DNA of 64,000 nt from Candidatus Daviesbacteria bacterium (GCA_016186955.1 JACPKP010000004.1:5942-69941), one strand, 5' to 3'; shown: positions 20,765-53,161, counted from the stretch's first letter. The notes: generated by a model from the letters alone, not told the origin. Numbers and translations: made by a program.

Positions 20765-20820
20765 GGGACCGTAGTGAACTGGTTATCACGGTCCGATGGA
20801 CATCGGACAGATAGCGGGTT
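20765..20820 (+). pseudogene. tRNA-Asp 5' partial duplicate (pseudo-tRNA)
   Basis: Its first 26 nt are identical to the intact tRNA-Asp 330 nt downstream (GGGACCGTAGTGAACTGGTTATCACG). The anticodon arm is diverged, the identity AGATAGCGGGTT is shared, and the sequence then diverges with no T-arm or 3' acceptor strand. Confidence 0.6.
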
Positions 20821-20840
20821 GATTGGTTACCAGGTGAAAT

Positions 20841-21104
20841 ATGGGAATAGTTTATATTTTAAGATCGTTAGTAAACGGAAGGTTTTACATTGGGTCGACG
20901 AATGATTTAGAAAGGAGATTTGGAGAACATAATTTAGGAAAATCAAAAGCGACAAAATTTACAGCGCCGTTTGAATTAGTCTTTAGACAGGAATATGATT
21001 CGTTAAACAAAGCCAGACGAGTTGAAAATAAGTTAAAAAAATTTAAGAGCAAGATAATTTTAGAAAAGATAATAAATGATAGTTTTATAACTTTGGGACC
21101 GTAG
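20841..21104 (+). CDS. GIY-YIG nuclease family protein (small, COG2827-like)
   Basis: IVYILRSLVNGRFYIGSTNDLERRFGEH. 87 aa. The stop codon TAG lies inside the 5' acceptor/D region of tRNA-Asp. Confidence 0.8.
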   Translation: MGIVYILRSLVNGRFYIGSTNDLERRFGEHNLGKSKATKFTAPFELVFRQEYDSLNKARRVENKLKKFKSKIILEKIINDSFITLGP

Positions 21105-21167
21105 TGAACTGGTTATCACGTCTCCCTGTCACGGAGAAGATAGCGGGTTCGATTCCCGTCGGTCCCG
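21095..21167 (+). tRNA. tRNA-Asp (anticodon GTC)
   Basis: GGGACCG-TA-GTGA-ACTGGTTA-TCAC-G-TCTCC-CTGTCAC-GGAGA-AGATA-GCGGG-TTCGATT-CCCGT-CGGTCCC-G. Confidence 0.9.
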
Positions 21168-21291
21168 CCTAGGCACTAAATTTTAATATTTCAGTCAGTT
21201 TTCCTGAAATTTGAAGTTAATAGTGTTCGAATTACATCAAGCGAATATTTAGTAAAATTCTGCAGAAATTAACTTTATTTTTAGTAAAAAG

Positions 21292-21579
21292 TTAATAATC
21301 TTCAACTGTTCTTATTCTTCCATCAGCTCTATGTATATATACGGATGTACCTTGGTTTTGAGCAATTGATTTAGCTCGATCTATAGCTGCCTTTTGAGTT
21401 TTAAAAATATCACTTGCTCTTTCTGCTCCACCACGAATTACTACCCATGAATTATCTTTATGTATAACATGGTGGTTTTGTTTACCTCTCTCGACAGCTT
21501 GTTTATAAGCCCTTATCTGAGGATTATTTTGATTTGTCTTATATATAACTTTTTTCATATTAAAATTTAGACTGAACAA
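21292..21579 (-). CDS. DUF2188-like small protein
   Basis: HVIHKDNSWVVIRGGAERASDIFKTQKAAIDRAKSIAQNQGTSVYIHRADGRIR matches the DUF2188 pattern W.V...GA.RAS..F.TQ.EAI..A..IA.NQ...L.IH..DG.IR. Confidence 0.5.
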   Translation of the reverse strand: MFSLNFNMKKVIYKTNQNNPQIRAYKQAVERGKQNHHVIHKDNSWVVIRGGAERASDIFKTQKAAIDRAKSIAQNQGTSVYIHRADGRIRTVEDY

Positions 21580-22162
21580 ATGAAATTATATCATTTTCTG
21601 ACATTTGAATTTTATTTAAATAAGCAATGAATTCTGTTCTGTTCCCAAATTCAATCTTGGCAAACTGCATTGTTTGGTTCTCCGTATAAGAACTTTCTAC
21701 AATGTTTATTGCTATTTGAGGATATTTTAGAGTAATCCACAATAACGTTTTTCTAGCACCAGAATGAGTTTTGTAAAAGTGAGAATCTTTAAATTTTCTA
21801 TCACGACTTAAAAAAGCAATAAATGCTCTTTTAAGATCATCAGGTATAATAGCATAAATGATAGGCTTTTTCTTTAATTTAAAAACTTCATTTAATTTAA
21901 TTCTTGCACCTTCCTCTGTAGAAAGCGTTGCATCAAATACAATACTTTTTTTACGGCTTAGTTGTGATGATAAAAACTCTGTTTTTCCAGATGCTGCGCC
22001 ACCATTTAAGAAGATTATGTTGTTGAACTTATGCTTTTTTAATTCTTCATAAAACAACTTATCTGCTTGTTTTGCTGACGCTGTATGGAATAACTCAGCC
22101 TTCTTGGGTAAATAACCAAACATAGTTTTCTTGATTTCATCTGCTGAAATGATAACGACCAT
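21560..22162 (-). CDS. zeta-toxin-like P-loop kinase
   Basis: Walker A NGGAASGKTEF within a zeta-toxin-like layout. 200 aa. Its 3' end overlaps the DUF2188 gene by 20 nt. Confidence 0.5.
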   Translation of the reverse strand: MVVIISADEIKKTMFGYLPKKAELFHTASAKQADKLFYEELKKHKFNNIIFLNGGAASGKTEFLSSQLSRKKSIVFDATLSTEEGARIKLNEVFKLKKKPIIYAIIPDDLKRAFIAFLSRDRKFKDSHFYKTHSGARKTLLWITLKYPQIAINIVESSYTENQTMQFAKIEFGNRTEFIAYLNKIQMSENDIISFVQSKF

Positions 22163-22361
22163 ATGTTAGTGAGTGAAATATAGCATAAAATATACTAAAG
22201 GAAGATCATTAGATTTGAATTACCATTTGTTACAAAGTTTTATGCTGATAAATTAAGCTGGAATATAGGTGTTCCAAATTTAAGCCTTCAAGCCCGCATA
22301 GGCTCGACAAGTTAATATTTACCAATTTTTAGTGAATTTTGAAGCTAAAAGTGTTCAAATC

Positions 22362-23094
22362 CTATTTAACGACAATTGAGTCGCCTGGGGAGATTATATA
22401 ATCTGCTGGTCTACGTGGGGATCTAAACTCTACCATGAAATCAGATTTCTGGTCACCTGATTTTATTAAATCTTGAATTAATTTCTCCTCGTCAAGAATA
22501 GAAAAATTATTATCCCCACCAAAATACCGAGCACAACTTGATTGATAACCTAAATCTTCAAGCATATTATTGGCTCTATCTTTAGCAGGGTAGTACCCAG
22601 AATGAGAACCCCCACAAAAAACTACCACTTTCGAATTTTGATCATTCTCCAATCTATCTCTAATAATTTCTGTCCATTGTCTATTCCTTTTACCAAATGT
22701 AGCTGACTGACTAGAGGCTAGGTATTCCTCGTTAGAAATATCCAATCCGTGTATATTCATCCCTAATGATTTAGCTAAAGAGTAAATTTCAAAATATTTA
22801 TCTCCCATACTAGGATCTTTATCATTCCAATGATCCTGTAAATATTGCCTTACTTTTTCTGAATCTGTAGTATCAAATCCCTTTGGTAACATTTCTAAAG
22901 CAAGATCTGTTACCCCCCCCCTCGGCCAATCTCTCTAGAGCACCTTTGAAGGCTTCTTTATCTGTAAAAGAGGTATGGCTATCGTTGATGAACAAAACTC
23001 TATTATTTCCAAGAATTTTACCATAATCAACTGGTTCTGGGTCACCAACTTCTTTTGTGCCTAATCCCAGTTTCACCTCATCATCCATATTCAA
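22362..23094 (-). pseudogene. hypothetical protein interrupted by a frameshift at a C9 (coding-strand G9) homopolymer
   Basis: ORFs 22873..23094 and 22362..22892 are adjacent, run in the same direction and overlap at the poly-C tract 22913-22921 (coding-strand GGG Gly codons). Joined they give ~245 aa. Confidence 0.55.
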
Positions 23095-23256
23095 ACTATA
23101 CCATAATCTGATCCTACATTTATTTGTTGCAAAGTTTTGTACTGATATAATAAACTTTGATATAGGTGTTCAAAATTTTTACCTTTGAGCCCGCTAGACT
23201 AACTGTGGGTGTCTTATAGTTGACTTCTGGGATCAATTTATGTTAGGATTGCTTTT

Positions 23257-23640
23257 ATGAAAGAGTATGTAAGACATCCTTTAGGCTCTCCATCTGGTGA
23301 ACCATTTGATGACAGAACTCAGGTTGAGCTGGAAGAAAAACCTACTCAACTAATGATGGCGACACACAATAACGTCGGCTTAGATGTGAGCAATCTATTA
23401 CAAACATTAGGTTTTGTGCAGGTTGAAGGAGAATCGGCAGGTGATTTGTTTTTAAGGAACACCCCAAAGAAAATTTTTAGTAGGGATTGGGCTATTTCTT
23501 ATCAAAAGGCAGAAAAGGGAGAAAAACGGGATCTTAACATTTTTACAATTTATCTCAATCATGGATCAGAGGTAGGTTATATGGATTTTCTGAGACAGAT
23601 TACAAACAGACAAGGTAGATACTGTGTTTTCTTCCCCTAA
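23257..23640 (+). CDS. hypothetical protein (cassette)
   Basis: 127-aa ORF about 60 nt downstream of a conserved repeat copy. No motif recognised. Confidence 0.4.
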   Translation: MKEYVRHPLGSPSGEPFDDRTQVELEEKPTQLMMATHNNVGLDVSNLLQTLGFVQVEGESAGDLFLRNTPKKIFSRDWAISYQKAEKGEKRDLNIFTIYLNHGSEVGYMDFLRQITNRQGRYCVFFP

Positions 23641-23870
23641 ATACAATTGGATTGCTTGAGACTCAACTCAAACGGGTGCCCTTTTCATGGGTAAAAAATT
23701 TCAAACTCTGCAAAGTTTTATACTGCTCCACTAAACTCTTATAAAGGTGTTCTAAATTTAAACTCTCAAGCCCCTCAATATTTTACGTTGCAAAAAATTA
23801 AAGAATATGGTATATTATTGTCATAAACGCCTCAGCTTGTGCGAAAGCCCGCTGAGGTTTTTTGTAATAT

Positions 23871-24461
23871 TTGTTTATGTCTAAGTGCATACTATTTATT
23901 GATGGCGAGAATTTTATACATAAAATTGAAGAGGTTTTAAAACAAGAGGGTATAAATAATAACAAAAAAGATTTAGCCTTAATAAACCTAAATAAACTTT
24001 TTAAAGAAGCATTGCAAGGCTTTGATTTTTCCAGAAAGATATTTTATGCCGCCAGACTTCACTTACACCCGGATACTAAAAAGAAATCAGAAGAACTTAT
24101 CAAACTCCAGCGCAAACTGCGCAACAATCTTATAAATCAGGGGTATGAATTCATTATCGCTGGGAATGTTAGAGCTCAAAAGGTGGGGAAGAGTGTGGTT
24201 TTCAGAGAAAAAGGTGTGGATGTAAAAATTGGTGTTGATATGACCTCGCTGGCTTGTGATAAAAAAATTGAAACTGCTATTCTTTGCAGTTCGGACTCAG
24301 ATTTACAACCTGCAATTACAGAACTTAAAGAAAGAGGTATAAAAGTAATCTATTTAGGTTTTGAAAACAATCCCAATAAAGGACTTACCTTTACCACAAA
24401 CAGAACAATCCTGTTAAGAAACTCTGAAGTAATTGAGGCTTGTCAAAACAGAAAAGATTAA
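23871..24461 (+). CDS. NYN/LabA-like (PIN-fold) domain protein
   Basis: N-terminal ILFIDGENF and the later ILCSSDSDLQPAI match the NYN-domain signatures (hhFIDGENh and hhSGDSDF). Confidence 0.6.
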   Translation: MFMSKCILFIDGENFIHKIEEVLKQEGINNNKKDLALINLNKLFKEALQGFDFSRKIFYAARLHLHPDTKKKSEELIKLQRKLRNNLINQGYEFIIAGNVRAQKVGKSVVFREKGVDVKIGVDMTSLACDKKIETAILCSSDSDLQPAITELKERGIKVIYLGFENNPNKGLTFTTNRTILLRNSEVIEACQNRKD

Positions 24462-24763
24462 ACTACACATAACTGTTGTAAAGCTCTATACTGTTCAACT
24501 CAACCCTGATACAAGTATTCCAGATTTGAACCCTCAAGCCCGCAATAAACCTATAGTTGCATTTTTATTTAAAATCTGTTACTATGCCTTGACTAAAGAA
24601 TGAGCTCAGATTAATTGTTATCCAAAGTTTATTTCTTTTGTTTTAATTCTCTTGCACTTTTAAATAACCTCTTAATACTACTGTGCAATTAGTGCATCTT
24701 AATTTTTGGTGTATTAATTGTGCAGTAGTACTGCATAAAATAATTTGTGCTAAGGAGGAACTG

Positions 24764-25546
24764 GTGAGAAAGGATCTTAAGTTTGAGGTATCCGAAGGAT
24801 TGACATTGTCGCTTGAAGATCTTTGGGCGAAAGTGTCTATCCGAACTAGCCCAAAGGGAATTGCAACAGTGGTTCTTGAGGGCGAAGAGAAGTTTATTAA
24901 CCAGGTGAAAGTGGAGCACCCAAACCCCTCTGAACTAACTCTCAAGGGTGAACAGGGTGGCAACACTGTCATTATGGGAGGCGGTTCCTCTATCGTCCTA
25001 GGAGGCCGGGGCAATGTTGTGATCGGCGGAAATATCCGAGGCAGTGTGATCTCATCGGGTAATCTCGTCATCATCAACGGCCGAGTGGTCTCTGGTGGCA
25101 AGGACGTGACTGTAACTTTGGGCGATGAAATGCTCAAGATTAAGATCACAGTCCCGGAAGGTACTGATCTCTCCAGCCATAGTGTTGAGGAACTCGATTC
25201 CAATGGACTTCGAGGAAAACTCTCACTTTCATTAAGCGGCCAGCAGCAAGCTGTTGTTGGTTTTGCCAAGAAGGTTAGGGTTTCCTGCAGCGGTCAGTCT
25301 GAGATTCAAGTTACCGAAGCTAGCGGAGATTTGAATGTCTCCACTAGCGGACAATCTTCTGTTGCCATCACAGGCAGCTTTGAAGATGTTGAGACTCACA
25401 GCAGTGGCCAAAGTCACATTGGAATCAACGGCAATTGCCGTAATTTCGAAGGTGACTCATCTGGCCAAAGCTCAATTTCGGTTTTGGGATCTGTCTCTGG
25501 CCGTGTGCGAAAGCACTCAAGCGGTCAAAGCAATATCCGAGTTTAG
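24764..25546 (+). CDS. beta-helix repeat protein with reiterated SGQS units (DUF4097/DUF2807-like putative adhesin head)
   Basis: Likely GTG start 6 nt after the AAGGAGG RBS (the track ORF starts upstream at 24683). Repeats: CSGQSEIQV, TSGQSSVAI, SSGQSHIGI, SSGQSSISV, SSGQSNIRV. Markedly G+C-rich relative to neighbours. Confidence 0.55.
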   Translation: MRKDLKFEVSEGLTLSLEDLWAKVSIRTSPKGIATVVLEGEEKFINQVKVEHPNPSELTLKGEQGGNTVIMGGGSSIVLGGRGNVVIGGNIRGSVISSGNLVIINGRVVSGGKDVTVTLGDEMLKIKITVPEGTDLSSHSVEELDSNGLRGKLSLSLSGQQQAVVGFAKKVRVSCSGQSEIQVTEASGDLNVSTSGQSSVAITGSFEDVETHSSGQSHIGINGNCRNFEGDSSGQSSISVLGSVSGRVRKHSSGQSNIRV

Positions 25547-25567
25547 TTGAGAGTTCGGCAAGAGAAA

Positions 25568-25607
25568 CCGCCCTAAGGGTTATAAACCCAAGGGGCGGAT
25601 TTTTTTG
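25568..25607 (+). terminator. rho-independent terminator
   Basis: CCGCCCTAAGGGTT-ATAA-ACCCAAGGGGCGG followed by T7. Confidence 0.65.
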
Positions 25608-26198
25608 TATATTTAAATATTGTTTAAAATGTAATTTGGGTACGCGTCCATTAAGGTATTTAATAGAGCTAATGATTCATATAAACCTACATTGCTCCCG
25701 CCTTCGTCTCGCTGAAGCTCGACTACGGCGAGGTAAACCCGTAAGTAGTCGAGCGTAAGCGGAAAGTATGAATTATGTGTATTTCTTGTTATGTTGGGAT
25801 GGAAAAATCTATACTGGTTCAACTAATAACTTATCCTTTGAACTTGAAAAATATTTTAAATCAGGTTCAGGAAGAGCATTTATGAAAAAACATAAACTGG
25901 TTGATCCTTAAAAATTTGCTATATTTTCCCCGTTTAACCCTGAGCCTGTCGAAGGGTCGATCCCGTATTAATCCTATAACTTGACTTTGGGTTTAAATTT
26001 GTTAAAATAATCCCACTTTAGAAATAAACCCAGATTAATTGTTATCTTGTTTTTGTTTCTTTTGTATGTTTTTTGCACATTAATTTTAGAATTTCAAATC
26101 CAATCCTTAAGCAAAGGTTTAAAGCAGGTAAAATAGCTTACCTTTTTTAAGTCTTTGCTTAGGTGGAAGCGGAGATAATAAACCGGAGAGTTACGTAA

Positions 26199-26612
26199 AT
26201 GACACATGCAGTGAGCGAAGTGTCTACTGAACAGTGCCTGCACTGGAAGGAAGAGGTGGCATTTATTGCCTCCATCAACCCATCCTTTTTGCGGGATGCA
26301 TGGCTAAACGCCATGGGTGGGCTAAACCCAGAGTACAATCTTCTTGAGATGCTTCTAAAGCCTCTCGAGGGACAACTCTGGTGGCATCTGACCCGCCATC
26401 CTCAGAAATGCAAATACCAAATGATCAAGCTTCTCGAGGAAAGGTTGGATCAGTTCCGTAACTGCCATTACTGGAGGAAACTCCTAGAAATAGCTGTGAC
26501 TCCAGGGATGGAACGGAGTGATTCTCATTTGAAGGATTGTGTGTTTTGTCAGAGGGACCTGCGGCAGATGAAGCCGAAGCTCCCTTACTACAAAGAGTTC
26601 TATAAACGCTAA
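26199..26612 (+). CDS. hypothetical protein (cassette; Cys/His-rich)
   Basis: 137-aa ORF ending with CVFCQ. Followed by the terminator GGGCGGT...ACCGCCCTTTTT at 26662-26692. Confidence 0.4.
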   Translation: MTHAVSEVSTEQCLHWKEEVAFIASINPSFLRDAWLNAMGGLNPEYNLLEMLLKPLEGQLWWHLTRHPQKCKYQMIKLLEERLDQFRNCHYWRKLLEIAVTPGMERSDSHLKDCVFCQRDLRQMKPKLPYYKEFYKR

Positions 26613-26820
26613 GCTAATGGGGACCACCTTCCCCCGAATGCTTAGTTCTAAGTGCTCATTCAAGGGCGGTTCTATATGGACCGCCCTTTTTATATCCCAA
26701 AACCTTGTAGGGTTTTATATTGAATCTTCAAACTCTTATAAAGGTGTTCCAGATTTGAACCCTCAAGCCCGCAAATAACTATAAGTTGACCCTTAAAGCA
26801 AGAAGTGTTATTATTGGTTC

Positions 26821-27750: not shown

Positions 27751-27910
27751 TAATTAACATTTGATCCTTGTAAAATTTGATATTGTTAGACCAAACTTTT
27801 TAATCTTATAGCGTATAGTTGATTTTTTAAGGGGTTTTTGCTACAATTTTCCAGTTTCTTTTGAAACAGCACATTAAGGCTGGAATAGCCACAGAAGCAA
27901 GGAGGATACC

Positions 27911-28207: not shown

Positions 28208-28291
28208 TTCCGGCAAGTGCAGGGCGGCCCGTTACGGGCCGCCCTTTTTCATGCGTAAAAGTGTAAAACAGATCTGTGTTAAAATAATTCC

Positions 28292-30879: not shown

Positions 30880-30948
30880 ACCGGCTTGAAGCGGAAAAAC
30901 CAACTACCGATAGAATCCACCCCGTTGTTACTATAATAACCTGATGAA

Positions 30949-31040
30949 AGAACAAAAATCAGGCAACCCTATTTAAAAAACACATCTACTGAACATTTTG
31001 TGCTAAAATACTTCTGATATGGCTACTGTGAATACTGCAA
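30949..31040. repeat. direct repeat copy A (duplicate of the htpX promoter and first 7 codons)
   Basis: About 92 nt, roughly 85% identical to 31560..31650, including a 44-nt perfect core AGAACAAAAATCAGGCAACCCTATTTAAAAAACACATCTACTGA. Confidence 0.85.
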
Positions 31041-31067
31041 GGGAGTAGGATATGATATAATCATGTC

Positions 31068-31328
31068 ATGTCAAGACCCAAACAAGAGCTACAATTTAAG
31101 ATATTAATCGAACAGGATGAAGATGGGATTTATGTGGCTTCTGTACCAGAACTTCCTGGTTGTTATACCCAAGGAAAAACTTTAGAACAGGTTAGGAATC
31201 GGATTAAAGAAGCGATAGAACTGGTTCTAGAATCTGATCAGGAAATAAAAAAAGAAAAGTTACAATCTCCGAAACCAGCTTCTAATTTTTTTGGGATAGA
31301 AGAGATAACTGTCAGCAGTTATGCCTAA
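31068..31328 (+). CDS. hicB: type II TA system HicB family antitoxin
   Basis: FKILIEQDEDGIYVASVPELPGCYTQGKTLEQVRNRIKEAIEL matches HicB/UPF0150. Confidence 0.8.
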   Translation: MSRPKQELQFKILIEQDEDGIYVASVPELPGCYTQGKTLEQVRNRIKEAIELVLESDQEIKKEKLQSPKPASNFFGIEEITVSSYA

Positions 31329-31542
31329 ATTATCTCCAATTAATGCCAAAGAGTTAATTAAAATCCTACAGAAAAAAGGATTTGAGGTTATTCATCAAAA
31401 AGGAAGTCATGTCAGACTTAGATATCCAGATGGCAGAAAAACAACAGTGCCTATGCATGCCGGGGAAAAAATTGGAGTAGGATTGTTGAGGAAAATCTTA
31501 AGGGACGTGAATATCTCAAGAAGTGAGTTTGAAAAGAGATAA
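31321..31542 (+). CDS. hicA: type II TA system HicA family toxin
   Basis: AKELIKILQKKGFEVIHQKGSHVRLRYPDGRKTTVPMHAGEKIGVGLLRKILRD matches HicA/YcfA. Overlaps hicB by 8 nt. Confidence 0.8.
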   Translation: MPKLSPINAKELIKILQKKGFEVIHQKGSHVRLRYPDGRKTTVPMHAGEKIGVGLLRKILRDVNISRSEFEKR

Positions 31543-31559
31543 ATTAAGTTTTGAATGAC

Positions 31560-31650
31560 AGAACAAAAATCAGGCAACCCTATTTAAAAAACACATCTAC
31601 TGAGCATTTTGTGGTAAAATTTACCATAATATGGCAACTATAAATACTGC
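31560..31650. repeat. direct repeat copy B (native htpX promoter and 5' end)
   Basis: See copy A. Confidence 0.85.
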
Positions 31651-32581
31651 TTGGGATCAGGTTTCTTCAAATACATTAAAAACCTGGGCTATCATGATTT
31701 TATTTACCATCTTTGCTGTGGGGGTGGTTTATGTGATTACAACAGCCTGGCTTGGGCCTGATGTTGACGGCTTGGGGATAGTGGGGATGGCATTTATTGT
31801 GGCAGGGGTGATGAATTTTGTGTCATATTTTTGGTCTGACAAAATTGTGCTGGGAATCTCCGGAGCAAAGCCTGTGGATGAGAAATCAAACAAACAGTTA
31901 TACCATCTGGTGGAAAATTTATGCATTGCTGCAGGATTACCTACCCCTAAAATTTATACCCTTGAAGACAGCGCCCCGAACGCCTTTGCAACCGGAAGGG
32001 ATCCAAAACACGCAGCAATCTGTTTTACAACAGGAATCCTGCAAAAACTTAACAAACAAGAGTTGGAGGGTGTGACAGCCCACGAGCTTTCCCATGTCGG
32101 CAATAGGGATACACTTTTGTTGAGCGTTGTCTCTGTTTTAGTGGGTACAATCGCTCTTTTATCCGACTGGTTTTTAAGGTCGCTTTGGTTTGGCGGCGGC
32201 AACCGTGATAATGACAATAAAGGCAGCGCTATTTTTATGGTCCTGGCGCTTGTTGCGGCAATTTTAGCCCCGATTGTGGCAACTTTAATCCAGCTGGCAG
32301 TTTCCAGAAGAAGGGAGTTTTTAGCAGATGCATCAGGGGTGCTTTTAACCCGCTACCCTGAGGGGCTTGCAAGCGCATTGCTGAAAATCTCCTCAGATAA
32401 AGAACCCTTGGAGGCAGCGAACAGAGGTACAGCTCATCTGTACATAGTTAATCCCTTAAAAGGCCTGCCTGCCGGCAGGCAGGGCCATGATGCAGTAGGT
32501 TTTTTGGCAGGGCTTTTCAACACCCACCCCCCAATCCAGGCTAGAATAAAGGCTTTGCAGGAGATGGAAGGCAAAATTTAG
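31631..32581 (+). CDS. htpX: zinc metalloprotease HtpX (M48)
   Basis: TM helices plus HELSHVGNRD (HEXXH) and a downstream EFLAD glutamate. Confidence 0.85.
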   Translation: MATINTAWDQVSSNTLKTWAIMILFTIFAVGVVYVITTAWLGPDVDGLGIVGMAFIVAGVMNFVSYFWSDKIVLGISGAKPVDEKSNKQLYHLVENLCIAAGLPTPKIYTLEDSAPNAFATGRDPKHAAICFTTGILQKLNKQELEGVTAHELSHVGNRDTLLLSVVSVLVGTIALLSDWFLRSLWFGGGNRDNDNKGSAIFMVLALVAAILAPIVATLIQLAVSRRREFLADASGVLLTRYPEGLASALLKISSDKEPLEAANRGTAHLYIVNPLKGLPAGRQGHDAVGFLAGLFNTHPPIQARIKALQEMEGKI

Positions 32582-44136: not shown

Positions 44137-44444
44137 TATTTAAGTGTACACTATTTTTAGTGAAATCTGGTGAGTTCAAAAAACTATAAAATACATAGTA
44201 TTGATGCAATAATTTAATCATGAGTTAGAATCCTAAACAGTCTCTTGGCTATAGGATTGATTTTGAGGAGTTATCCACAATTTTTTCCTTTATCAAAATC
44301 AAACAGATGCGATTTTCTCTTAGACTGCTCCCTTTTGCCCATTTTTCGAATTATCCTTACTCTCTCAATATGCTAGAAAAAGCGACGGTAAGAAGCTAAG
44401 GAGTACAAGCGCTACGATTATAATGATCAGCCATTTTTTAAAAT

Positions 44445-47231
44445 TCATTGACGTAGCTTATTTAAGATTTCTCCCAACTTTTTTATTTCCTCTCCGTACC
44501 TGCCCCAATCTCCCTCCCTTTGTGCATTGATGGCAGATTGATACGCCTGACTAGCTTGTTGAAGAAGACCTTCTTTACTTTCATCGGCAGGTGCACTCAG
44601 GGCAGATTCTGCGGATGGTTTTGTTTGACCCTCGGTAGTGCCAAATATCTTAGCAAAGCCTGCTTCCAATGTCTCTTCCATGGCAATTTTATTTTCATAG
44701 GCAACAATAACCCGTTTGAGTTCCGGGATTTTTCCTGTTGCTGCCTTAAGATAAAGCGGCCGGACATAGACCAAGGATTCCTCAATTGGAATGACCAGAA
44801 GCGGGCCTTGAATTACCTCCGAACCGCCCTGATCCCAAAGGGAAATTTGCTGACTGATCTGTGCATCCTGACTTATCCGGCCGATAATCTGTTTGGGACC
44901 AAACACCAGTTTATCCTTGGGGAAACGGTAGACAACCAGCTTGCCATACTGCTCCCCGTCATTTCTGGCCACCATCCAGGCAGAAAGGTTATCTTTTGCT
45001 CTTGGGGTAAACGGCAGCATCAAAATATACTCCTCGGCTTTCTCACCAGGAAGCTTCATAATCATGTGCCGAGGATCCATTATCGGTACATTGTTGCCTG
45101 TTTGTGCCTCGCCCCCCTGGGCAATAGCAGGAATTTCCCACTGGTCCTCTTTATTGTAGAAAATCTGCGGGTTATCCATATGATAGGTTGTGTAGATTGC
45201 TGTTTGCAGAGTGAACAAATCTTGCGGATAGCGCAAATGAGCAGTTAAGCTTTTAGGCATTTCTGAAAGTGGAAGGAAAGTTTTGGGGAAAATTTTGGCG
45301 TAGGTTTTGATAATCGGATCATCCGGATCTGTTTGATAAAACTTAATCTCTCCTCCATAAGCATCTACCACTGCCTTGACTGAATTTCTAATATAGTTTA
45401 CGTTACCTCCATTTAACGGTAGTTTTTGGGAATATGGATAACGGTCGGTTGATGTATAGGCATCAAGTATCCAATACAACTTGCCCTCGGCAATCACCAA
45501 ATACGGGTCGCGGTCAAGGGTAAGAAATGGAGCAATTTTTGAAACCCTCTCTTTTATATTGCGGTAATAAATGATACGGCTCTCCTGGGTTACATCACTT
45601 GATAAAAATAATTTGAGGGAACCAAAGCGCAAAGCATACAGGAATCGGCGCAGGGGTGAGTTAATCTCAACGCCGCCTACTCCGCTATATGTGGTATAAA
45701 CATTTTCATCCCCTTTGGGGTAATCAAACTCTTTGGACTTAGTTCTGACTATCACATAATCATTGGGGATTTCGCCGTAATAGACTTCAGGCCTTGTGAC
45801 CTCAAGTTCTTTGACTTCGGATTTTGGAGGTAGGTCTTTAACAAATAACACCGGCAATCCTTCCGGAGTAACCTGGTTCACTGGTCCGGCAGCCACGCCG
45901 TAACCGTGAGTAAAGGTCAGCCGCTCATTAATCCAATTCTTGTTAGGTAGACTGTCGGAAGCCAATTCTCTGGGAGAAAGCATAATCTGGCGCACCTCAT
46001 TGTTGATTGTATAGCGATCGTTATCAACAGAGGTAAACTCGTAGTAAGTCCTAATCTCCTGGATTTGCGAAAAAGTGGACAGAAGCGGCGCTCTGTCCCA
46101 GAGTCTGACATTCTTGATGGTCAGATTGTTGGCCGCTATATCAGGAGCTGTAATCGGTTTATCCGCGGCTATTTCCCGCTCTTCCACCTTATCCAAACCA
46201 TAAGCCTTGCGACTCGCCTCAATGTTGTATTTGATAAAAGGCGTTTCTTTGGTAAGTTCATTGGGCGCAACTACCAGTTTTTGAAAAACACCAGGGATGA
46301 TTGAAGAAGCAAACCCGACTATGACAGTCAAAGAAATTGCTCCAAAAAGAGGCGCAATTTTTCCGCTCACACCATAAAATAAAGCCAGAATGGCAGCCGC
46401 CCCGTAAACAAATACAGATATGCGCAATATAGGTACCATAACATTGGCATCGGTGAAGGCCGCACCAAACACCGGGCCGCTCTGGCTGGTGAGTAAATTA
46501 TAAAGTGAAAAGTAGGTACCTGCGGCAATGGTTGAAAGAAAGAGAGATAATAGAATGCTGATATGCAGTCTGGCTTTTGGTTCGGTATGATCTCTCAAAG
46601 ATCTAATAATCAGACTTTCAGGCTTTACGGTTAATTTGGAGAGGTTAATTTTAGGGAAAAGGCTTGATAAATTGAGGCTACCCCGCAGAATGTAGATTGC
46701 ACCGCAACCGATAAGCGATATTAAAATAACGGTTTTTATAAGGCCAAGTCCAAAAGAGTATATAGGGAGGGAAAATACGTAAAAAGATACGTCAGCACCA
46801 AATAACGGGTCTTTTTGGCCAAACGGTACGGCTGAGAGGAATTTTAAAACGTCGTGCCAACTACTTGCGGCTAAAAAAGCGATAAAGATAGAAATAATAC
46901 AGCTTAAGATAATGCCAAGCTTTCCAAGCAAGCGATTACTGAGGTTTAAGGGTTGACCAAGACCAATCAGGGCTTCAGGGATACTTGCTATCCAGGGTAT
47001 TTTTGAACGGATGGCAATTAGTAGATTGGTAAGAAGAAATGCTGCTGCAAGAATTCCTGCTACAGTTCCCACAATGATTTTGGCAACGAGTGATTTGATA
47101 AAAATTTCGGTAAAACCAACCTCCTGGTACCACCACCAGTCGGTAATCAAAGAAACAATGCTTGAGAAGAAAATAAAAGTAACAAAGGCCAGACCTAAGA
47201 ATGTCAAGGAAAAAAATTTAGTGATGTTCAT
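44445..47231 (-). CDS. UPF0182 family membrane protein
   Basis: 928 aa. N-terminal multi-TM region beginning ...LITDWWWYQEVGFTEIF (the UPF0182 hallmark WxxEVGF) followed by a large extracytoplasmic domain. Confidence 0.6.
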   Translation of the reverse strand: MNITKFFSLTFLGLAFVTFIFFSSIVSLITDWWWYQEVGFTEIFIKSLVAKIIVGTVAGILAAAFLLTNLLIAIRSKIPWIASIPEALIGLGQPLNLSNRLLGKLGIILSCIISIFIAFLAASSWHDVLKFLSAVPFGQKDPLFGADVSFYVFSLPIYSFGLGLIKTVILISLIGCGAIYILRGSLNLSSLFPKINLSKLTVKPESLIIRSLRDHTEPKARLHISILLSLFLSTIAAGTYFSLYNLLTSQSGPVFGAAFTDANVMVPILRISVFVYGAAAILALFYGVSGKIAPLFGAISLTVIVGFASSIIPGVFQKLVVAPNELTKETPFIKYNIEASRKAYGLDKVEEREIAADKPITAPDIAANNLTIKNVRLWDRAPLLSTFSQIQEIRTYYEFTSVDNDRYTINNEVRQIMLSPRELASDSLPNKNWINERLTFTHGYGVAAGPVNQVTPEGLPVLFVKDLPPKSEVKELEVTRPEVYYGEIPNDYVIVRTKSKEFDYPKGDENVYTTYSGVGGVEINSPLRRFLYALRFGSLKLFLSSDVTQESRIIYYRNIKERVSKIAPFLTLDRDPYLVIAEGKLYWILDAYTSTDRYPYSQKLPLNGGNVNYIRNSVKAVVDAYGGEIKFYQTDPDDPIIKTYAKIFPKTFLPLSEMPKSLTAHLRYPQDLFTLQTAIYTTYHMDNPQIFYNKEDQWEIPAIAQGGEAQTGNNVPIMDPRHMIMKLPGEKAEEYILMLPFTPRAKDNLSAWMVARNDGEQYGKLVVYRFPKDKLVFGPKQIIGRISQDAQISQQISLWDQGGSEVIQGPLLVIPIEESLVYVRPLYLKAATGKIPELKRVIVAYENKIAMEETLEAGFAKIFGTTEGQTKPSAESALSAPADESKEGLLQQASQAYQSAINAQREGDWGRYGEEIKKLGEILNKLRQ

Positions 47232-47557
47232 ACAAAAAAACCAGCCAAATCTAGTCTTGGCCGGTTATAATTGATGATGTTTCGCAGCTCTAAAACGCAT
47301 GCTATTGACCATCCGTCTTATTGCTCCGCATCACCCAAGGCGCTGTTAGACTAAATTCAGCATAACATAAGGTTCCTGTTCTTGCAACAAAAAAAGAAAA
47401 AGACCCCATTGCTGAGGTCTTAACCCGAAAGATTCTATTGCTAGAAACTTTCTAACTCTATAGCTTACGCCATAAAGCTAATTTTAATTTATACTAATTG
47501 TGCTTTTTTGTAAAGCACATGTACAATCGTTGTTATAAATCTATTGTCTTTTTAGGC

Positions 47558-48056
47558 TTAATTGCCCCCTTTGAGATACCTGTCAAAAAATTCAACCGAG
47601 TGTTCCATAGCGGTGTCGAAACTATTAGTTAAGTTATGGTCATCACCCTCATAAGGATAGAATTCAACAAGTTTGTTAACCTCTTGAAGTTGGCTATTCA
47701 ATTTCTCTGAGAAATTGAAAGGAACGTGAGAGTCGTCTTTTGCGTGGTGCAGCTGAATAGGCCCGGAAATGTCTGCTAAATAAGAGTTTGCCGAGATTGA
47801 GTTCCAAAAGGGGATTTTGTTCCGGAGTACCATACTGGTCGATAAGATTTTGCCTCCATGAGGTTGCCCAATGCGGTGTGCGTCTCCAATTATTGACTAA
47901 ATCAGAATAAGAACCAACCACCCCTATACTGGTTGTAACTGCTCCCCGAAGGAAGGGTTTGCTCAAGTGTAATCTCACTGCCCGGATAAGTCTGCTGTCG
48001 CATGTATTCAATTGACAACGGATGGAGCTTTTCTTCCAAACCGCCTTGATCCTCAC
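47558..48056 (-). pseudogene. alpha/beta-hydrolase (S9 peptidase-like) remnant
   Basis: The C-terminal fragment contains the catalytic-His region LHHAKDDSHVPF. Upstream frames are broken, with overlapping ORFs 47694..48056 and 47558..47833 in different frames. Confidence 0.4.
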
Positions 48057-48057
48057 T

Positions 48058-48747
48058 CTACTTTCTTTTTAACTTCCTGATGATACTTGCCCTGATTTCG
48101 CCGTCAACTAATATATGGTGTAGAGCCGGTAATACGGAGGCAATAACGATCAGTCCAACAATTGGCAGGAGATATTTATCAACATCCGGGATCAGGCTTC
48201 CTAAGTAATATCCTGCCAGAGTTACCCCAATTGCCCAAAGAACAGCTCCAAAAAAATTGAAGAAAACAAACCTTTTGTAATACATCTTACCGGCCCCTGC
48301 AACAACCGGGGCAAATGCGCGAATAACCGGAATAAACCTTGCCAAAATGATAGTTTTACCTCCGTGTTTATCATAAAATCTCTGAGCCCTTTCCAGGTGC
48401 TTTTTATGAAAGAAGATTGAATTATTTTTGCTAAAAATCTTAGGTCCTAAGTTTGCTCCGATTAGATAACCAATGCTGTCACCTGCAATCGCGGCCACAA
48501 AGCAACCTGCAATTAAAATTTTAATATCAAGGTATCCTTGAGATGCTAAAAATCCGGCTGTAAAGAGAAGACTATCTCCGGGAAAAAAGAAACCAATCAA
48601 GAGACCTGATTCTAAAAAAACTATGGTAAAAACTCCCAAATACCCAATTGCTTGAATCAGAGAAGCCAGATCAAAATACATAAAAGTAAGTATAGCAGAA
48701 AAGGGACTTGGAGAATGTAATTGTGCCATAACAGGCGAACAACACAT
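48058..48747 (-). CDS. dedA: DedA family membrane protein
   Basis: GFFFPGDSLLFTAGFLASQG is the DedA/SNARE-associated signature. Confidence 0.8.
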   Translation of the reverse strand: MCCSPVMAQLHSPSPFSAILTFMYFDLASLIQAIGYLGVFTIVFLESGLLIGFFFPGDSLLFTAGFLASQGYLDIKILIAGCFVAAIAGDSIGYLIGANLGPKIFSKNNSIFFHKKHLERAQRFYDKHGGKTIILARFIPVIRAFAPVVAGAGKMYYKRFVFFNFFGAVLWAIGVTLAGYYLGSLIPDVDKYLLPIVGLIVIASVLPALHHILVDGEIRASIIRKLKRK

Positions 48748-48844
48748 TAAAAAATATAAAAATGGAGCTAATCAAACATTTATTTACTATAGATGCACTA
48801 AAAAAATAAAACCCTGTTCTCAAAAATACATTTCAGAACCTGAA

Positions 48845-49431
48845 TTGGAGGGACAAGTAAGAAAAATAGTCTCTGATTGTGCGCTACCCCAAGAATGGGC
48901 TGATGATTGGTATAAATGGATGGAAAAAGATGAGAAAAAAGAACTAATACTTTCTGATGAAAATATTAAGAGGTTAAAAGATGAAGTTAAATCTTTAGAT
49001 AAAAAGTTAAATATCCTGCTGGACAGCTACTTAGATCAAGCTATTGATGCTGAAACTTATAAACCAAAAAGAACGAATTTTTCAATGAAAAATTAAAATT
49101 GGAGGAAGAAATAACAAAAATAAAGACAGACGGTTCGAGTTGGCTCGAACCTATGAAAGAGTGGTTAGGTAGCGCACTTTCGTGCGCAAAAATCGCGCGC
49201 ACAAAAAATACATGCTCCGATTTAGCAATCGGAGCAAAAACTGTCGGCTCGAACTTCTTTTTACTTAACCGCCGGCTGCTGGTAAATTATGAAAAGCCTT
49301 TTGCAGCACTCTGCGCGCCCCCACCCGCGCAGAGAAATTCCGAAGCTTTGGCTTCAAAATCCCTTTCGGTACCGCCTACGGGATTCGAACCCGTGATTAC
49401 TGGGATGAAAACCCAGCGTCCTAACCACTAG
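48845..49431 (+). pseudogene. remnant of a large serine recombinase C-terminal region, ending across tRNA-Glu
   Basis: Two short ORFs. DENIKRLKDEVKSLDKKLNILLDSYLDQAIDAETY resembles the coiled-coil DxYxDGxIxxEEY region of serine integrases. The last ORF reads through the tRNA-Glu complement, as the intact recombinase does at tRNA-Gly. Confidence 0.4.
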
Positions 49432-49442
49432 ACGAAGGCGGC
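49370..49442 (-). tRNA. tRNA-Glu (anticodon TTC)
   Basis: Reverse complement gives GCCGCCT-TC-GTCT-AGTGGTTAG-GAC-G-CTGGG-TTTTCAT-CCCAG-TAAT-CACGGG-TTCGAAT-CCCGT-AGGCGGT-A. Confidence 0.8.
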
Positions 49443-49516
49443 TCGTTACACTCGTCACTTATAAATTTTAACAAAATTTACCTTAAATAACCAGTTTACA
49501 AGCATGACTTAAAGGC

Positions 49517-51298
49517 TCATTTCGTACCGTTTAAATCAACTTTTCTGATCCGGACATTTTTTGGGGTGACTTCAACCAGTTCCGTATCATTAATATATTC
49601 TAAGGCATCTTCCAAATCCATAATTTTTGGTGCATTAAAATGTTCGGATACGCCTTCACCGCTGGAACAGTGGTTAGTCTGTTGTTTTTCCTTGCATACA
49701 TTAACACTCATATCGCCTGCTCTGGCGTTTTGGCCGATTACCTGTCCCTTGTAAACCGTAGTTCCCGGCTGAATAAAAACAATCCCCCTGCTTTGGATTG
49801 AGGCAAGCCCGTAAAGTTTGGTTATCCCGTTTTCATGCACAACCAGCGAACCCCTTTCCCTTTGGTAGTTTTGTCCCAAATCCTGCCTAAACTCAAAAAA
49901 GTTTGCATTTATTATTCCCGTACCTTTGGTATCGGTAATAAATTCACTTCTATACCCAAAAAGTTCTTTTGTTGCAATAAGAAACTCTAAAAATACAATC
50001 CCATTTTCCCGGCTCATCTCCTGCAAAACTCCATGGCGCAGCCCCATTTTTTGCATGACCACGCCCTGATAAAGTTCCGGGACTTCTATAAAAACCCGTT
50101 CAAAAGGGGTTATTACTTTCCCGTCACTTATTTTTTCTATCACCTTAGGTCTGGAAACCTGAAACTCAAAACCCTCACGCCTTAAACGCTCAATTAGAAT
50201 TGCCAGGTGCAATTCACCTCTCCCGCAAACTTCCCAGCCTATCCCGTTGTCGGAAACTTTTAGCGCCACATCATCGTCGGCAGCTTTGTAAAGCCGCTCC
50301 CTGATCTGTCTGGAAGTTTTAAACTCCCCCTCTTTTCCGGCAAATGGGGAGGTGTTTACCCCAAAAGTCATTATGACGGTAGGCTCTTCTATAGATAAAA
50401 GCGGTTGGGGCGGTGTACCAATTTCATCGGTAATTGTTTCACCGATAGTTATATCAGTGATTCCTGAAAAGGCTATAATGTCTCCGGCTCCGGCTTCATT
50501 TACGGCAATTTTTTCCAGTCCTTCAAAAACAATTAAAGAAGTTAAGCGGAATTTAAATCTCTCGCCCTCCCTGTTTATTTGTATAACATCCTGGTTGGCT
50601 TTAATCCTTCCGTTGATAATCCGGCCGGTTGCAATCCGGCCTTTAAAATTATCAGACGCAATAGAGGTGACCAAAACCTGGAGCGGTTTATCCGGGTTAC
50701 CTTTGGGAGAGGGGATATGTTTTATAACCGCTTCAAAAACAGGTGTTATATCTGCCATTGCCGGTAAATCAGGTTTGTTTCCGGCAACGCCATTTTTTGC
50801 CGAGGCGTAGATAATGGGAAAATAAGCGCTTTCCTCATCTGCCCCAAGTTCTATAAAAAGGTCAAAAGTTTTACTTATCACATGATCTATCCTGGCGTCA
50901 GGCCTGTCTATCTTGTTGATTACAACAATAATTTTTAATCCCAGAGCTAAAGCCTCCTGTAAAACAAACCTTGTCTGTGGCATAGGGCCCTCTTTTGCAT
51001 CCACCAAAAGCAGGCAGCCATCCACAAGTTTTAAAACGCGTTCAACCTCCCCGCCAAAATCCGCATGTCCGGGTGTGTCAACAATGTTAATTTTAGTTCC
51101 GCGGTAATTTACGGAAGCGTTTTTTGAAAAAATAGTTATGCCCCGTTCTTTTTCAAGCTCGTTGCTGTCCATAATCAAATTTTTGCCGTCAAATTCTTTG
51201 GAAAGTTTCGTTTGGGTTTGGCGGAGCAGGGCATCCACCAGAGTGGTTTTGCCATGGTCAACGTGGGCAATGATCGCTACGTTCCTTAAATTATTCAC
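49517..51298 (-). CDS. typA: translational GTPase TypA/BipA
   Basis: [20 protein letters not shown] and DTPGHADF G-motifs in the EF-G-like domain order. 593 aa. Confidence 0.9.
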
Positions 51299-51337
51299 AA
51301 GAATTTAATTATAACGGATTACACAAAATATAGCAAA

Positions 51338-52012
51338 CTATGGGGTAGATTCCTGCACAAACTTACAATAAGAACAATCCCCGGAAGAATCAGGAATTTT
51401 TCCGTCCAGAATTTTTTTTGCTTCCATTATTTTATCCTCAACCCATGAGTCATTACCATCATAAGGCTGTACTTTAATATCAAAACTTAAATTGCCTTTT
51501 TTAAAACCCTTCTCCTTATTTACCCTGCAATAGACAAAATATCCCCTGTCCAAAACCTTAAACTTATTTTTTCTTAAGATCCACTGGTAGATTTCCATCT
51601 GGCGTTTGTAACTCTCATATAACTCTCCCTCTTTGGCGCCTGATGCTTTGTAGTCAACCACCATAAGGCTGCCTTTGGAGTCTACCCAGATGTCATCAAC
51701 CGCTCCAAACACTAAAAAATCAGTTTTTTTATGATGATACTGGATCCCGGTAAAAGTATTCCGCCATCTATCTATATCGTTGTGCATAAAGGGGATGGCG
51801 TCAATGCCTTCGCGGGTAATAAGGTAATGGGCTGTGCCGTTTTTGCGGTGTCCGTCAAATTCATTTTTGAGAAGAAAATCTACAGCATTGTTAATTGTGT
51901 AAGGAGCACCGAATGGGCGAGCAATACCCTTGCCGGCGTAAAGCCAGAAACAACGGGGACAGTCAAATAATAATTCTAATTTAGACCTCGATAATTTAAT
52001 CATATGGTTCAA
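51338..52012 (-). CDS. Cas4-like/RecB-family PD-(D/E)XK nuclease (DUF83), stand-alone
   Basis: N-terminal CPRC and C-terminal CSYC cysteines (Fe-S cluster pattern), VVDYK (D..K catalytic) and EIYQWIL (QxxxY) motifs. Confidence 0.55.
   Translation of the reverse strand: MNHMIKLSRSKLELLFDCPRCFWLYAGKGIARPFGAPYTINNAVDFLLKNEFDGHRKNGTAHYLITREGIDAIPFMHNDIDRWRNTFTGIQYHHKKTDFLVFGAVDDIWVDSKGSLMVVDYKASGAKEGELYESYKRQMEIYQWILRKNKFKVLDRGYFVYCRVNKEKGFKKGNLSFDIKVQPYDGNDSWVEDKIMEAKKILDGKIPDSSGDCSYCKFVQESTP
51946..52003. repeat. direct repeat copy 1 (native 5' end of the Cas4-like gene)
   Basis: 58 nt. All but 2-3 positions match 53104..53161. Confidence 0.85.
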
Positions 52013-52036
52013 AATTGAGATAGTTTGATCTAACTA

Positions 52037-53083
52037 TTATTTTCTTTTTTTACTTTTATCAACCAGCTTAACTGCTTTATTTGCAAAAGTCTCAAAATCC
52101 TTATCCGCCTTACTTAGATTTTTTAAACGGTTTTTGTAATAAACATTATATTCTTTTTCTGCCAATTCTTTTGCCAGTTCGTGCGAAATTTTGCCGGCGT
52201 CTTTTAAGATTTCTTTGTTATTGATCTGCAAAAAACTATTCAGCTTATCAATCCAATCTTTCATATACATTGGCACCCTCTGAATTGCCTGTCCCTGGGC
52301 AAACACAAGATATTGCTCGACAAGATTATTTAACACAAGAAGCTCTTGCTCGTTCAAGTAATTTTTGGCAATCACCACTTCTTCTTTTGTCGGTTTATTG
52401 CCTCTAAAGTTTGTTAATCCTACGTTTGGTTTTTTGCTATTCACTCTACCGGCAACTATTTCCGCAGCCGTACTTCCCGTAATCGCGTAATGGACTTTGT
52501 TTTGCACTGTTTTAAAAAATAGAATGCTTTGTTCGTCGGTCGGGTCATAGTCCACGCTGGTGGCATAAATATCAGTAATTTTCCTATAAAATCGTTTTTC
52601 AGAAGTGCGAATGTCCGCGATTCGTCGCGTCAAATCTTCAAAATAATCAAACGGCAAATCAGGATTTTTTAATCGCTCATCATCCAATACAAACCCTTTG
52701 ACAATATATTCGCGCAAGCGCGCTGTTGCCCACTGACGAAACGAAGTAGCAATAGAGCTTTTGACACGGTAACCTATAGAAATGATCAAATCCAAATTAT
52801 AGTATTCTAAATTTCGCGAAACCTCACGCTCACCTTCTTTTTGAACTGTTAAGTAATTCTTAACAGTTGCATTTTGAACTAACTCGCCTTCTCCAAAAAT
52901 ATTTTTTACATGCAGGCTAATATTATTTTTTGTTGTTTGAAACAGTTCTGCTAAAGCATTTTGAGTAAGCCACACCGTATCTCCGTCAAAACGCACATCA
53001 ATTTTTGTTTGCCCGTCTTCGGCTTTATAAATAATGATTTGTGATTTTTGATTGTTTGTTTTTATTCCTTTACTCTTAGACAT
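52037..53083 (-). CDS. rhuM: RhuM family virulence-associated protein
   Basis: IIIYKAEDGQTKIDVRFDGDTVWLTQNALAELFQTTKNNISLHVKNIF matches the RhuM N-terminal signature. Confidence 0.75.
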   Translation of the reverse strand: MSKSKGIKTNNQKSQIIIYKAEDGQTKIDVRFDGDTVWLTQNALAELFQTTKNNISLHVKNIFGEGELVQNATVKNYLTVQKEGEREVSRNLEYYNLDLIISIGYRVKSSIATSFRQWATARLREYIVKGFVLDDERLKNPDLPFDYFEDLTRRIADIRTSEKRFYRKITDIYATSVDYDPTDEQSILFFKTVQNKVHYAITGSTAAEIVAGRVNSKKPNVGLTNFRGNKPTKEEVVIAKNYLNEQELLVLNNLVEQYLVFAQGQAIQRVPMYMKDWIDKLNSFLQINNKEILKDAGKISHELAKELAEKEYNVYYKNRLKNLSKADKDFETFANKAVKLVDKSKKRK

Positions 53084-53103
53084 ATTATTTTTTATATCGT
53101 TTC

Positions 53104-53161
53104 AGAAACAACGGGGATAATCAAATAATAATTCTAATTTAGACCTCGATAATTTAATCAT
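53104..53161. repeat. direct repeat copy 2 (duplicated Cas4-like 5' end upstream of rhuM)
   Basis: Encodes the leader peptide MIKLSRSKLELLFDYPRCF*, which ends 16 nt before the rhuM ATG. Confidence 0.85.

Follow-up and report, generated by a model that had tools for sequence, protein, structure and literature searches.

We analysed a 64,000-nucleotide (nt) stretch of DNA, here called the window, from Candidatus Daviesbacteria, a Microgenomates bacterium of the candidate phyla radiation (CPR). The gain of accessory and defence genes in CPR bacteria is poorly understood, owing to their tiny genomes, few recognisable mobile elements and lack of cultured genetics. Within the window, a GIY-YIG nuclease gene precedes tRNA-Asp (site 1), a hicBA toxin–antitoxin pair precedes htpX (site 2) and rhuM precedes a Cas4-like nuclease gene (site 3). 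We found that each of these three small accessory inserts is bracketed by copies of the start of the next gene, 59–100 nt long, which is far beyond chance. Pfam identified GIY-YIG (E = 1.8e-16), HicB (4.9e-11), HicA (1.6e-20), Peptidase_M48 (3.7e-30), RhuM (5.6e-106) and PDDEXK_1 (3.3e-13) domains in the corresponding products, and at all three sites the insert reads in the same direction as its target, as an earlier reading made from the DNA alone (the sequence-only reading) had stated. The features of the three sites are as follows.

Site 1
20726–20754, plus strand: promoter-like site TTGAAA-17-TACAAT with TG, the best in the region (10/12 matches)
20763–20826, plus strand: pseudo-tRNA-Asp, upstream copy (no tRNA call by ARAGORN or Rfam)
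20791–20808, no strand assigned: palindrome GTCCGATGGACATCGGAC in place of the anticodon arm (sequence motif search)
20841–21104, plus strand: gene for an 87-amino-acid (aa) single-domain GIY-YIG nuclease (Pfam)
21095–21169, plus strand: intact tRNA-Asp (GTC), the target (ARAGORN; Rfam, 64.8 bits)
Site 2
30944–31044, plus strand: htpX leader, upstream copy (repeat alignment)
31068–31542, plus strand: hicB (31068–31328) and hicA (31321–31542), the insert (Pfam)
31555–31656, plus strand: htpX leader and 5′ end, functional downstream copy (repeat alignment)
31631–32581, plus strand: htpX (Peptidase_M48), the target (Pfam)
Site 3
53103–53161, minus strand: Cas4-like codons 1–19, upstream copy (repeat alignment)
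52037–53083, minus strand: rhuM (PADLOC candidate defence family PDC-S05), the insert (Pfam, PADLOC)
51945–52003, minus strand: true 5′ end of the Cas4-like gene, downstream copy (repeat alignment)
51338–52003, minus strand: Cas4-like PD-(D/E)XK nuclease gene, the target (Pfam)

Repeat pairs at three accessory inserts

The repeat pair at site 1 (20763–20824 and 21093–21154; blastn E = 1e-6) is identical over 28 nt at its start, after which a divergent block and a second matching block follow. At site 2 the copies (30944–31044 and 31555–31656; E = 9e-27) share 86% identity over 102 nt and 95% over the first 66 nt, and at site 3 (53103–53161 and 51945–52003; E = 8e-21) 57 of 59 nt are identical. 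The repeats of sites 2 and 3 are each present exactly twice in the window. Imperfect duplicate pairs, as claimed by the sequence-only reading, are present at all three sites; its view of the upstream copies as degraded did not hold at site 1, where the copy is remodelled by a palindrome and conserved. Nor do the repeats of sites 1 and 3 cover the promoter of the target, as had been proposed for all; this is possible at site 2 only, which contains a −10-like element. The pattern is neither an ordinary transposon target-site duplication nor a lambda-type duplication of tRNA 3′ ends, as had been recognised. A sequence common to the insert junctions was also looked for, and neither an end motif nor terminal inverted repeats were found among the three inserts; the palindrome of site 1 was absent when searched for at sites 2 and 3.

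Three Logan single-run assemblies were exact substrings of the window, extending from 18538, 19484 and 20077 to 21144, and all three break within the repeated tRNA segment. Since they cross the junction between the pseudo-copy and the GIY-YIG gene, this junction is not an assembly artefact, an explanation that these three exact run-level contigs rule out for site 1. Exact-protein look-ups for HtpX, RhuM and HicA returned no record.

A GIY-YIG gene family nested in tRNA duplications

The site 1 insert is only 266 nt long and the tRNA-Asp gene downstream of it is uninterrupted. The repeat starts 2 nt before position +1 of the tRNA and duplicates its 5′ part, from nt 1 to about 58. The pseudo-tRNA-Asp retains the 5′ acceptor strand and D-arm together with the variable loop and the start of the T-stem, and it lacks the anticodon arm and the 3′ half. 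The palindrome that replaces the anticodon arm belongs to a motif occurring twice in the window, against 0.02 occurrences expected. At the other end of the insert, the stop codon of the GIY-YIG gene, TAG, is made up of nt 8–10 of tRNA-Asp. The promoter-like site at 20726–20754 precedes the upstream copy and falls outside the duplicated segment, and the same TGTTACAAT is also found in the orthologous locus L014. This site is probably the tRNA-Asp promoter, now also driving the GIY-YIG gene, and the arrangement suggests that the open reading frame (ORF) and tRNA-Asp probably share one transcript that starts upstream of the pseudo-copy. RNase P cleavage at tRNA position +1 would strip the ORF of its stop codon and would thereby limit expression of the nuclease, so that nuclease expression is possibly coupled to tRNA transcription and processing.

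A protein with exactly the sequence of the 87-aa product (100% identity) is annotated in Candidatus Daviesbacteria. The gene order of L014 is LysM, GIY-YIG and tRNA-Asp, with PolX a few genes on, and its GIY-YIG protein is 70% identical to that of the window. When the two loci were compared, the pseudo-copy was 78% identical overall and about 90% over its first 60 nt, the palindrome was identical in 19/20 nt and the tRNA showed 87% identity; the corresponding values were 69.5% for the ORF (0.82/0.82/0.38 by codon position) and 46–52% for the flanks. Because they are conserved above the flanks and the third codon positions, both the pseudo-copy and the ORF are under constraint. In L003 and L005, which are more distantly related, tRNA-Asp is present once and both the GIY-YIG gene and the pseudo-copy are missing.

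Several candidate origins were rejected for this site. Rfam at E ≤ 1 detected the intact tRNA alone over site 1, and no group I intron or other family; a group I intron in tRNA-Asp was dismissed on this basis and because the tRNA is intact. A phage origin of the GIY-YIG gene yielded no tblastn match, and integrase-mediated integration into the tRNA gene was discarded because the insert contains no integrase and the 5′ part of the tRNA is duplicated instead of the 3′ part.

Exact look-ups provided the first homologs of the GIY-YIG gene, and a 31-sequence alignment was then used to scan metagenomes; the family figures given here refer to the best 80 loci of at least 540 relatives from this one scan. 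The homologous genes encode proteins of 87–95 aa in candidate-phyla bacteria, and a same-strand tRNA gene lies within 150 nt in 77 of the 80 loci. ORF and tRNA overlap by 10 nt in 45 loci, where tRNA nt 8–10 form the stop codon TAG; the tRNA lies just 3′ of the ORF in 13 loci and ends 0–75 nt before the ATG in 19. The tRNAs comprise at least 12 isoacceptors (Asp-GTC, Val-GAC/TAC/CAC, Ala-GGC/TGC/CGC, Gly-GCC, Thr-GGT, Ile-GAT and Arg-ACG/GCG). We found significant similarity between the sequence upstream of the ATG and that starting from the ORF end in 56 of 79 loci, indicating that the bracketing tRNA duplication is a family trait. Proteins sharing 64–69% identity occur at different tRNA types and in both arrangements, and the gene has therefore switched tRNA hosts.

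One copy of the tRNA gene stays functional. The non-functional copy, which may be either the upstream or the downstream one depending on the locus, has lost one acceptor strand and resembles the local tRNA over two blocks, the first spanning the 5′ acceptor strand and D-arm and the second the variable loop and T-stem. In all 13 alignments inspected the substitution falls exactly at the anticodon arm, usually as the palindrome CCGATG-NN-CATCGG. This is also the dominant form of a CCGAY..RTCGG hairpin that occurs in the tRNA-derived flanks of 63/80 loci, at a density of 4.9 per kb compared with 0.13 per kb elsewhere (38-fold enrichment). The loop is always G-N-N-C and extends the palindrome, so a DNA-level site would fit better than a stable RNA tetraloop. 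Residues Y16, R26, H30 and E62 are invariant in 31 homologs, and the closest solved relatives are the UPF0213 proteins 1zg2 and 1ywl, followed by I-TevI and SLX1. In our survey of the literature on GIY-YIG genes and CPR, no description of tRNA-nested GIY-YIG genes was found, and the family is apparently a widespread, undescribed variant of GIY-YIG element.

In one family locus, L020, three tandem 75-nt units, each composed of a tRNA-Ile D-arm piece and the hairpin CTCCGACGTACGTCGGAG, lie upstream of an intact tRNA-Ile (3700–3900), and a pseudo-tRNA-Ile with hairpins replacing the anticodon arm and the T-arm follows the GIY-YIG gene (4290–4380). In the 31-sequence alignment the C-terminal residues of many proteins are ...LGP or ...LGS, which the tRNA acceptor stem encodes, and some gene calls carry an N-terminal ...VTGSNPV..., which is a translated tRNA T-arm. 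Automatic annotation therefore reads through tRNA-derived sequence.

Three known systems resemble site 1 in part. The free-standing GIY-YIG homing endonuclease SegB lies among tRNA genes of T4/T6 phages, and in T6 double-strand breaks and homologous recombination amplify a tRNA-segB segment (PMC2330249; PMC13096335). Site 1 likewise has a GIY-YIG nuclease gene at tRNA genes and shares the conserved Tyr, Arg, His and Glu. In contrast to SegB, which has a DNA-binding extension, the site 1 protein is an 87-aa catalytic domain alone; moreover, the phage gene is not nested in register within a tRNA duplication, its stop codon is not tRNA nt 8–10 and no palindrome-bearing pseudo-tRNA accompanies it. 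Ssn proteins (CDD family cd10448) are single-domain GIY-YIG nucleases acting on single-stranded DNA, for which flanking hairpin repeats (NTS/SRM) serve as the cleavage signal (PMC11893778). They share with site 1 a stand-alone GIY-YIG protein of roughly 90–100 aa and a conserved hairpin motif at the gene flanks, but the motif of site 1 is CCGATG-NN-CATCGG, lies inside a tRNA pseudo-copy and, with two occurrences in 64 kb, is not a genome-wide repeat. The Ssn paper mentions neither tRNAs nor Patescibacteria (PMC11893778). Finally, group I introns have been described at position 35/36 of tRNA-Asp and tRNA-Asn genes in Patescibacteria (PMC13011429). The phylum, the tRNA-Asp gene and a disruption centred on the anticodon arm are common to both cases, whereas site 1 has no Rfam intron, an uninterrupted tRNA-Asp and a 266-nt insert with a protein gene.

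Other GIY-YIG genes and hairpins were noted in the window. An intact 95-aa GIY-YIG gene of another subfamily lies at 19192–19479 on the minus strand with GTCATTCTGAGCGAAGCGAAGAAT-like sequence at its flanks, and a 47-codon truncated GIY-YIG gene of a different subfamily lies at 25768–25910 on the plus strand, 3′ of a hairpin with a 10-base-pair stem. Neither gene has an in-register tRNA neighbour or a match to the published Ssn SRM consensus. Directly downstream of tRNA-Glu, a GC-rich segment of about 260 nt (49100–49365, minus strand) contains several strong hairpins, among them GCTCCGATTGCTAAATCGGAGC, the only other match in the window to the site 1 palindrome pattern. No Rfam family was detected in this segment at E ≤ 1; a structured RNA that has escaped annotation, or what is left of a tRNA-linked element, may lie here.

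hicBA and rhuM between target-derived repeats

The upstream copy at site 2 consists of about 76 nt of upstream sequence followed by nine altered htpX codons ending in TAG, so that the relic encodes M-A-T-V-N-T-A-R-E-stop. The repeat holds an extended −10-like element, TGTGCTAAAAT (TGTGnTAAAAT), which was not called by a consensus promoter scan. Differences between the two copies are unevenly distributed, with 4/66 in the upstream part against 10/38 around the start codon (p = 0.006), and at two codons it is the relic, not the functional htpX copy, that agrees with the ortholog in L001, whose HtpX is 90% identical in amino acids. Unrelated ORFs occupy the spacer between lemA and htpX both in L001, where they encode 138 and 77 aa, and in L005; neither locus has flanking repeats there, and the htpX leaders of these two loci do not align with the window repeat. 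A homology query with a chimeric RhuM and HtpX sequence retrieved RhuM relatives only and no closer HtpX loci. In L001, htpX and gatC are also separated by an extra 244-aa ORF (3577–4311), against a gap of just 18 nt in the window, so that a second variable spot adjoins htpX.

The site 3 repeat begins with the ATG and consists of coding nt 1–59 only. The relic has a GGAGG ribosome-binding site 8 nt upstream, an ATG and a TGA exactly at the junction, and no Shine–Dalgarno sequence was found upstream of the functional Cas4-like copy. The best matches of the Cas4-like protein (86%) come from Levy-, Woese- and Daviesbacteria. Among the Cas4-like genes, the first 59 nt were no more conserved at the nucleotide level than the remainder of the gene, indicating that the site 3 repeat arose in a recent local event and is not a conserved recombination site. 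The gene stands at the downstream edge of a defence island that extends between tRNA-Lys and the Cas4-like gene (53200–59700) and includes RadC (57472–58134), an Eco47II-type endonuclease (56772–57464), a MerR-fused C5 cytosine methylase (55443–56750), Vsr (54941–55495) and several short ORFs, followed by rhuM. Upstream of orthologous Cas4-like genes lie a type I restriction–modification system in L006 and an MmeI-like one in L007. Like the lemA–htpX spacer, this position is an integration hot spot.

The closest relative of rhuM (L103, 85% aa identity) has unrelated neighbours, nucleotide homology confined to the ORF and no repeats. A rhuM cassette with conserved ends was rejected, as L103 shares the ORF only and neither it nor L104–L107 has flanking repeats. 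A scan of IMG/VR with RhuM gave no match. We found a truncated rhuM directly 5′ of a Cas4-like gene in another CPR lineage, which makes a donor with rhuM upstream of this gene plausible. In L104–L106, the 498-aa protein P0237 consists of a truncated RhuM (about the first 236 residues) fused in frame to a Cas4-like PD-(D/E)XK domain, and this fusion was found in three independent assemblies.

Insertion with long target duplication has been described for restriction–modification units (Nobusato et al. 2000; Furuta, Abe & Kobayashi 2010, PMC2853133), where defence-gene inserts without mobility genes are flanked by long target duplications of variable length (PMC2853133). Sites 2 and 3 resemble this class in that their direct repeats are site-unique, target-derived, longer than 30 base pairs, slightly diverged and variable in length, and in that a small defence-type unit is inserted without a transposase or integrase; by Pfam the two inserts contain only HicB, HicA and RhuM, and no mobility genes. 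They differ from it in that hicBA and RhuM are not restriction–modification genes, the host is a CPR bacterium and the duplicate includes the start of the downstream gene, so that a truncated relic is left; in both relics the coding sequence is cut off and a stop codon follows at once. On these features, sites 2 and 3 appear to match a known, mechanistically unsolved class, which they extend beyond restriction–modification to toxin–antitoxin and RhuM genes.

Two further repeat families were identified in the window.

22225–26814, plus strand: family D1, five same-orientation copies at 22225, 23122, 23703, 24471 and 26700 (repeat search)
24599–24641 and 26023–26065, plus strand: family D5, 43-nt imperfect direct repeat (repeat search)

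The D5 repeat brackets a DUF2807 gene and the truncated GIY-YIG gene and is a further candidate example. The D1 module is 78–110 nt long with the core GGTGTTCCAGATTTRAACCCTCAAGCCCGC, followed in most copies by a TG-extended promoter-like site, and the region from tRNA-Asp to PolX is divided by its copies into unrelated cassettes that lie on both strands. It is also present at the orthologous place in L002 (about 7187, 8236 and 8832), beside other cassettes that include another hicBA pair; a common hicBA cassette for this array and the htpX site was rejected at only 43–44% aa identity. No integrase and no Rfam match were found in the D1 array. An integron was likewise rejected, given mixed-strand cassettes and no tyrosine recombinase among the scanned ORFs of the window, and the D1 copies are conserved in sequence and not just in structure. 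In the related contig L016, a 53-nt repeat (5860–5912 and 7363–7415; 91% identical) contains the 3′ end of a PD-(D/E)XK gene with its stop codon and brackets an AAA_14/DUF4143 ATPase gene, the mirror image of the 5′-end cases in the window; 5′ ends are therefore not special. The expectation of the sequence-only reading that the pattern would recur was thus borne out by D5 and D1 in the window, by the 3′-end case of L016 and by the GIY-YIG family. D5 and L016 would belong with sites 2 and 3, and so perhaps would the D1 array, a possible iteration of this signature. With several cases within 64 kb, the window suggests that insertion with long target duplication is frequent in CPR.

Origin of the bracketing repeats

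On balance, we favour a composite signature, with a tRNA-nested selfish nuclease family behind site 1 and insertion with long target duplication behind sites 2 and 3. Site 1 would be a selfish, homing-type element whose nuclease breaks DNA at or near a tRNA gene or hairpin, and repair from an occupied locus would copy the GIY-YIG gene together with the flanking tRNA sequence. D-arm and T-arm blocks common to tRNAs would permit occasional same-register jumps to other tRNA genes, with the D-arm block at nt 8–25, shared among many tRNAs, presumably keeping the register during movement. By analogy with the hairpin repeats of Ssn, the palindrome is probably the cognate site of the GIY-YIG protein, which would recognise either this planted sequence or the structure of tRNA genes. 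The minimal GIY-YIG family in tRNA duplications is thus a testable candidate for a new sequence- or structure-specific mini-nuclease with its cognate site.

For sites 2 and 3, the accessory gene would have arrived on DNA that also bore the end of the adjacent core gene. One crossover would have been homologous within the core gene and the other end would have been joined illegitimately inside the recipient's copy, so that a truncated relic remained upstream. The same product would result if a circle with this short homology integrated by a Campbell-type single crossover, an alternative that is indistinguishable here. Either way, the repeats in these integration hot spots would be recombination scars, needing no dedicated recombinase.

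Several observations weigh against this composite origin. Sites 2 and 3 rest on a single assembly, without an independent one, and for neither of them did we find a donor sequence or an empty site in the same species, so that the direction and mechanism of these events are inferred. The uneven divergence at site 2 is not simply explained by either recombination model. At site 1, the GIY-YIG protein has no DNA-binding domain, and a search of the window with the published Ssn SRM consensus gave no match. The orthologous conservation of the locus at 70% aa identity means that its inheritance is mostly vertical, and it could be domesticated.

The last point leads to a reading that we regard as rather unlikely, in which the tRNA-nested GIY-YIG gene has been domesticated by the host and does not move. 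The pseudo-tRNA and palindrome would then act as its regulatory leader (operator or processing signal), and the nuclease might have a housekeeping role linked to tRNA or DNA. In favour of this, L014/L023 have the gene in the orthologous position and with conserved architecture (70% aa identity to the window), the ORF and the pseudo-copy are both under purifying selection, and the bare catalytic domain is most similar to UPF0213 proteins of unknown function. However, the occurrence of 64–69% identical proteins at different tRNA types and in both arrangements, the patchy distribution of the gene, which is absent in L003 and L005, and the tandem pseudo-tRNA pieces of L020, which indicate ongoing rearrangement, argue against it. 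A bolder proposal, which we consider unlikely, is that the tRNA-nested GIY-YIG genes form a new class of selfish element whose nuclease recognises its own hairpin, planted in a remodelled tRNA copy, and exploits breaks at tRNA genes to copy itself with flanking DNA, and that break-and-copy activity in trans, or CPR-specific repair, yields the duplications at defence and toxin–antitoxin genes. If true, a shared break-and-copy activity acting in trans, as in phage SegB, would link all cases mechanistically.

It is also conceivable, although distinctly unlikely, that the duplications came first, as local tandem promoter or leader modules possibly selected as promoters, and only afterwards received the accessory genes between their copies. 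As this order of events would have it, a −10 element lies at or near the end of both the D1 modules and the site 2 repeat, with genes following, and the D1 element has been kept in L002, where its neighbours are unrelated cassettes. But the site 3 repeat is purely coding, and its 59 nt (nt 1–59) are not a multiple of 3, so that a tandem copy would disrupt the gene; the duplicate at site 1 always accompanies the GIY-YIG gene; and no duplication-only state was found in L001, L003, L005, L006 or L007.

The sequence-only reading had inferred one distinct, possibly lineage-specific acquisition route, such as a site-specific system or a circle carrying the 5′ end of the target, behind all three inserts. 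The same geometry and orientation at three sites, the density of at least 3–7 cases in 64 kb and the fact that all inserts are defence, toxin–antitoxin or nuclease-type genes speak for such a system. Yet a single dedicated route is not supported and appears very unlikely: the junctions share no motif or terminal repeats, the palindrome is confined to site 1, L016 duplicates a 3′ end, the closest rhuM relative lacks flanking repeats and the only recombinase in the window (16861–17793) is of the serine type, which makes no long duplications. Least probable of all is that the site 2 and 3 repeats were created by the joining of strain variants in a metagenome-assembled genome: although the source is metagenome-derived, the assembly is single and the divergence of the copies, a few percent, is what strain variants would show, a de Bruijn path from Cas4-like codon 20 or htpX codon 10 into the insert needs junction-spanning reads, the relics are structurally coherent (ribosome-binding site, start codon, immediate stop) and for site 1, which shares this geometry, three separate run-level assemblies provide confirmation.

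The serine recombinase, with Resolvase and Recombinase domains and possibly truncated, lies with methyltransferases in a 6.1-kb island between tRNA-Thr and tRNA-Gly (12413–18516); in the relative L005 these two tRNA genes are only 10 nt apart.

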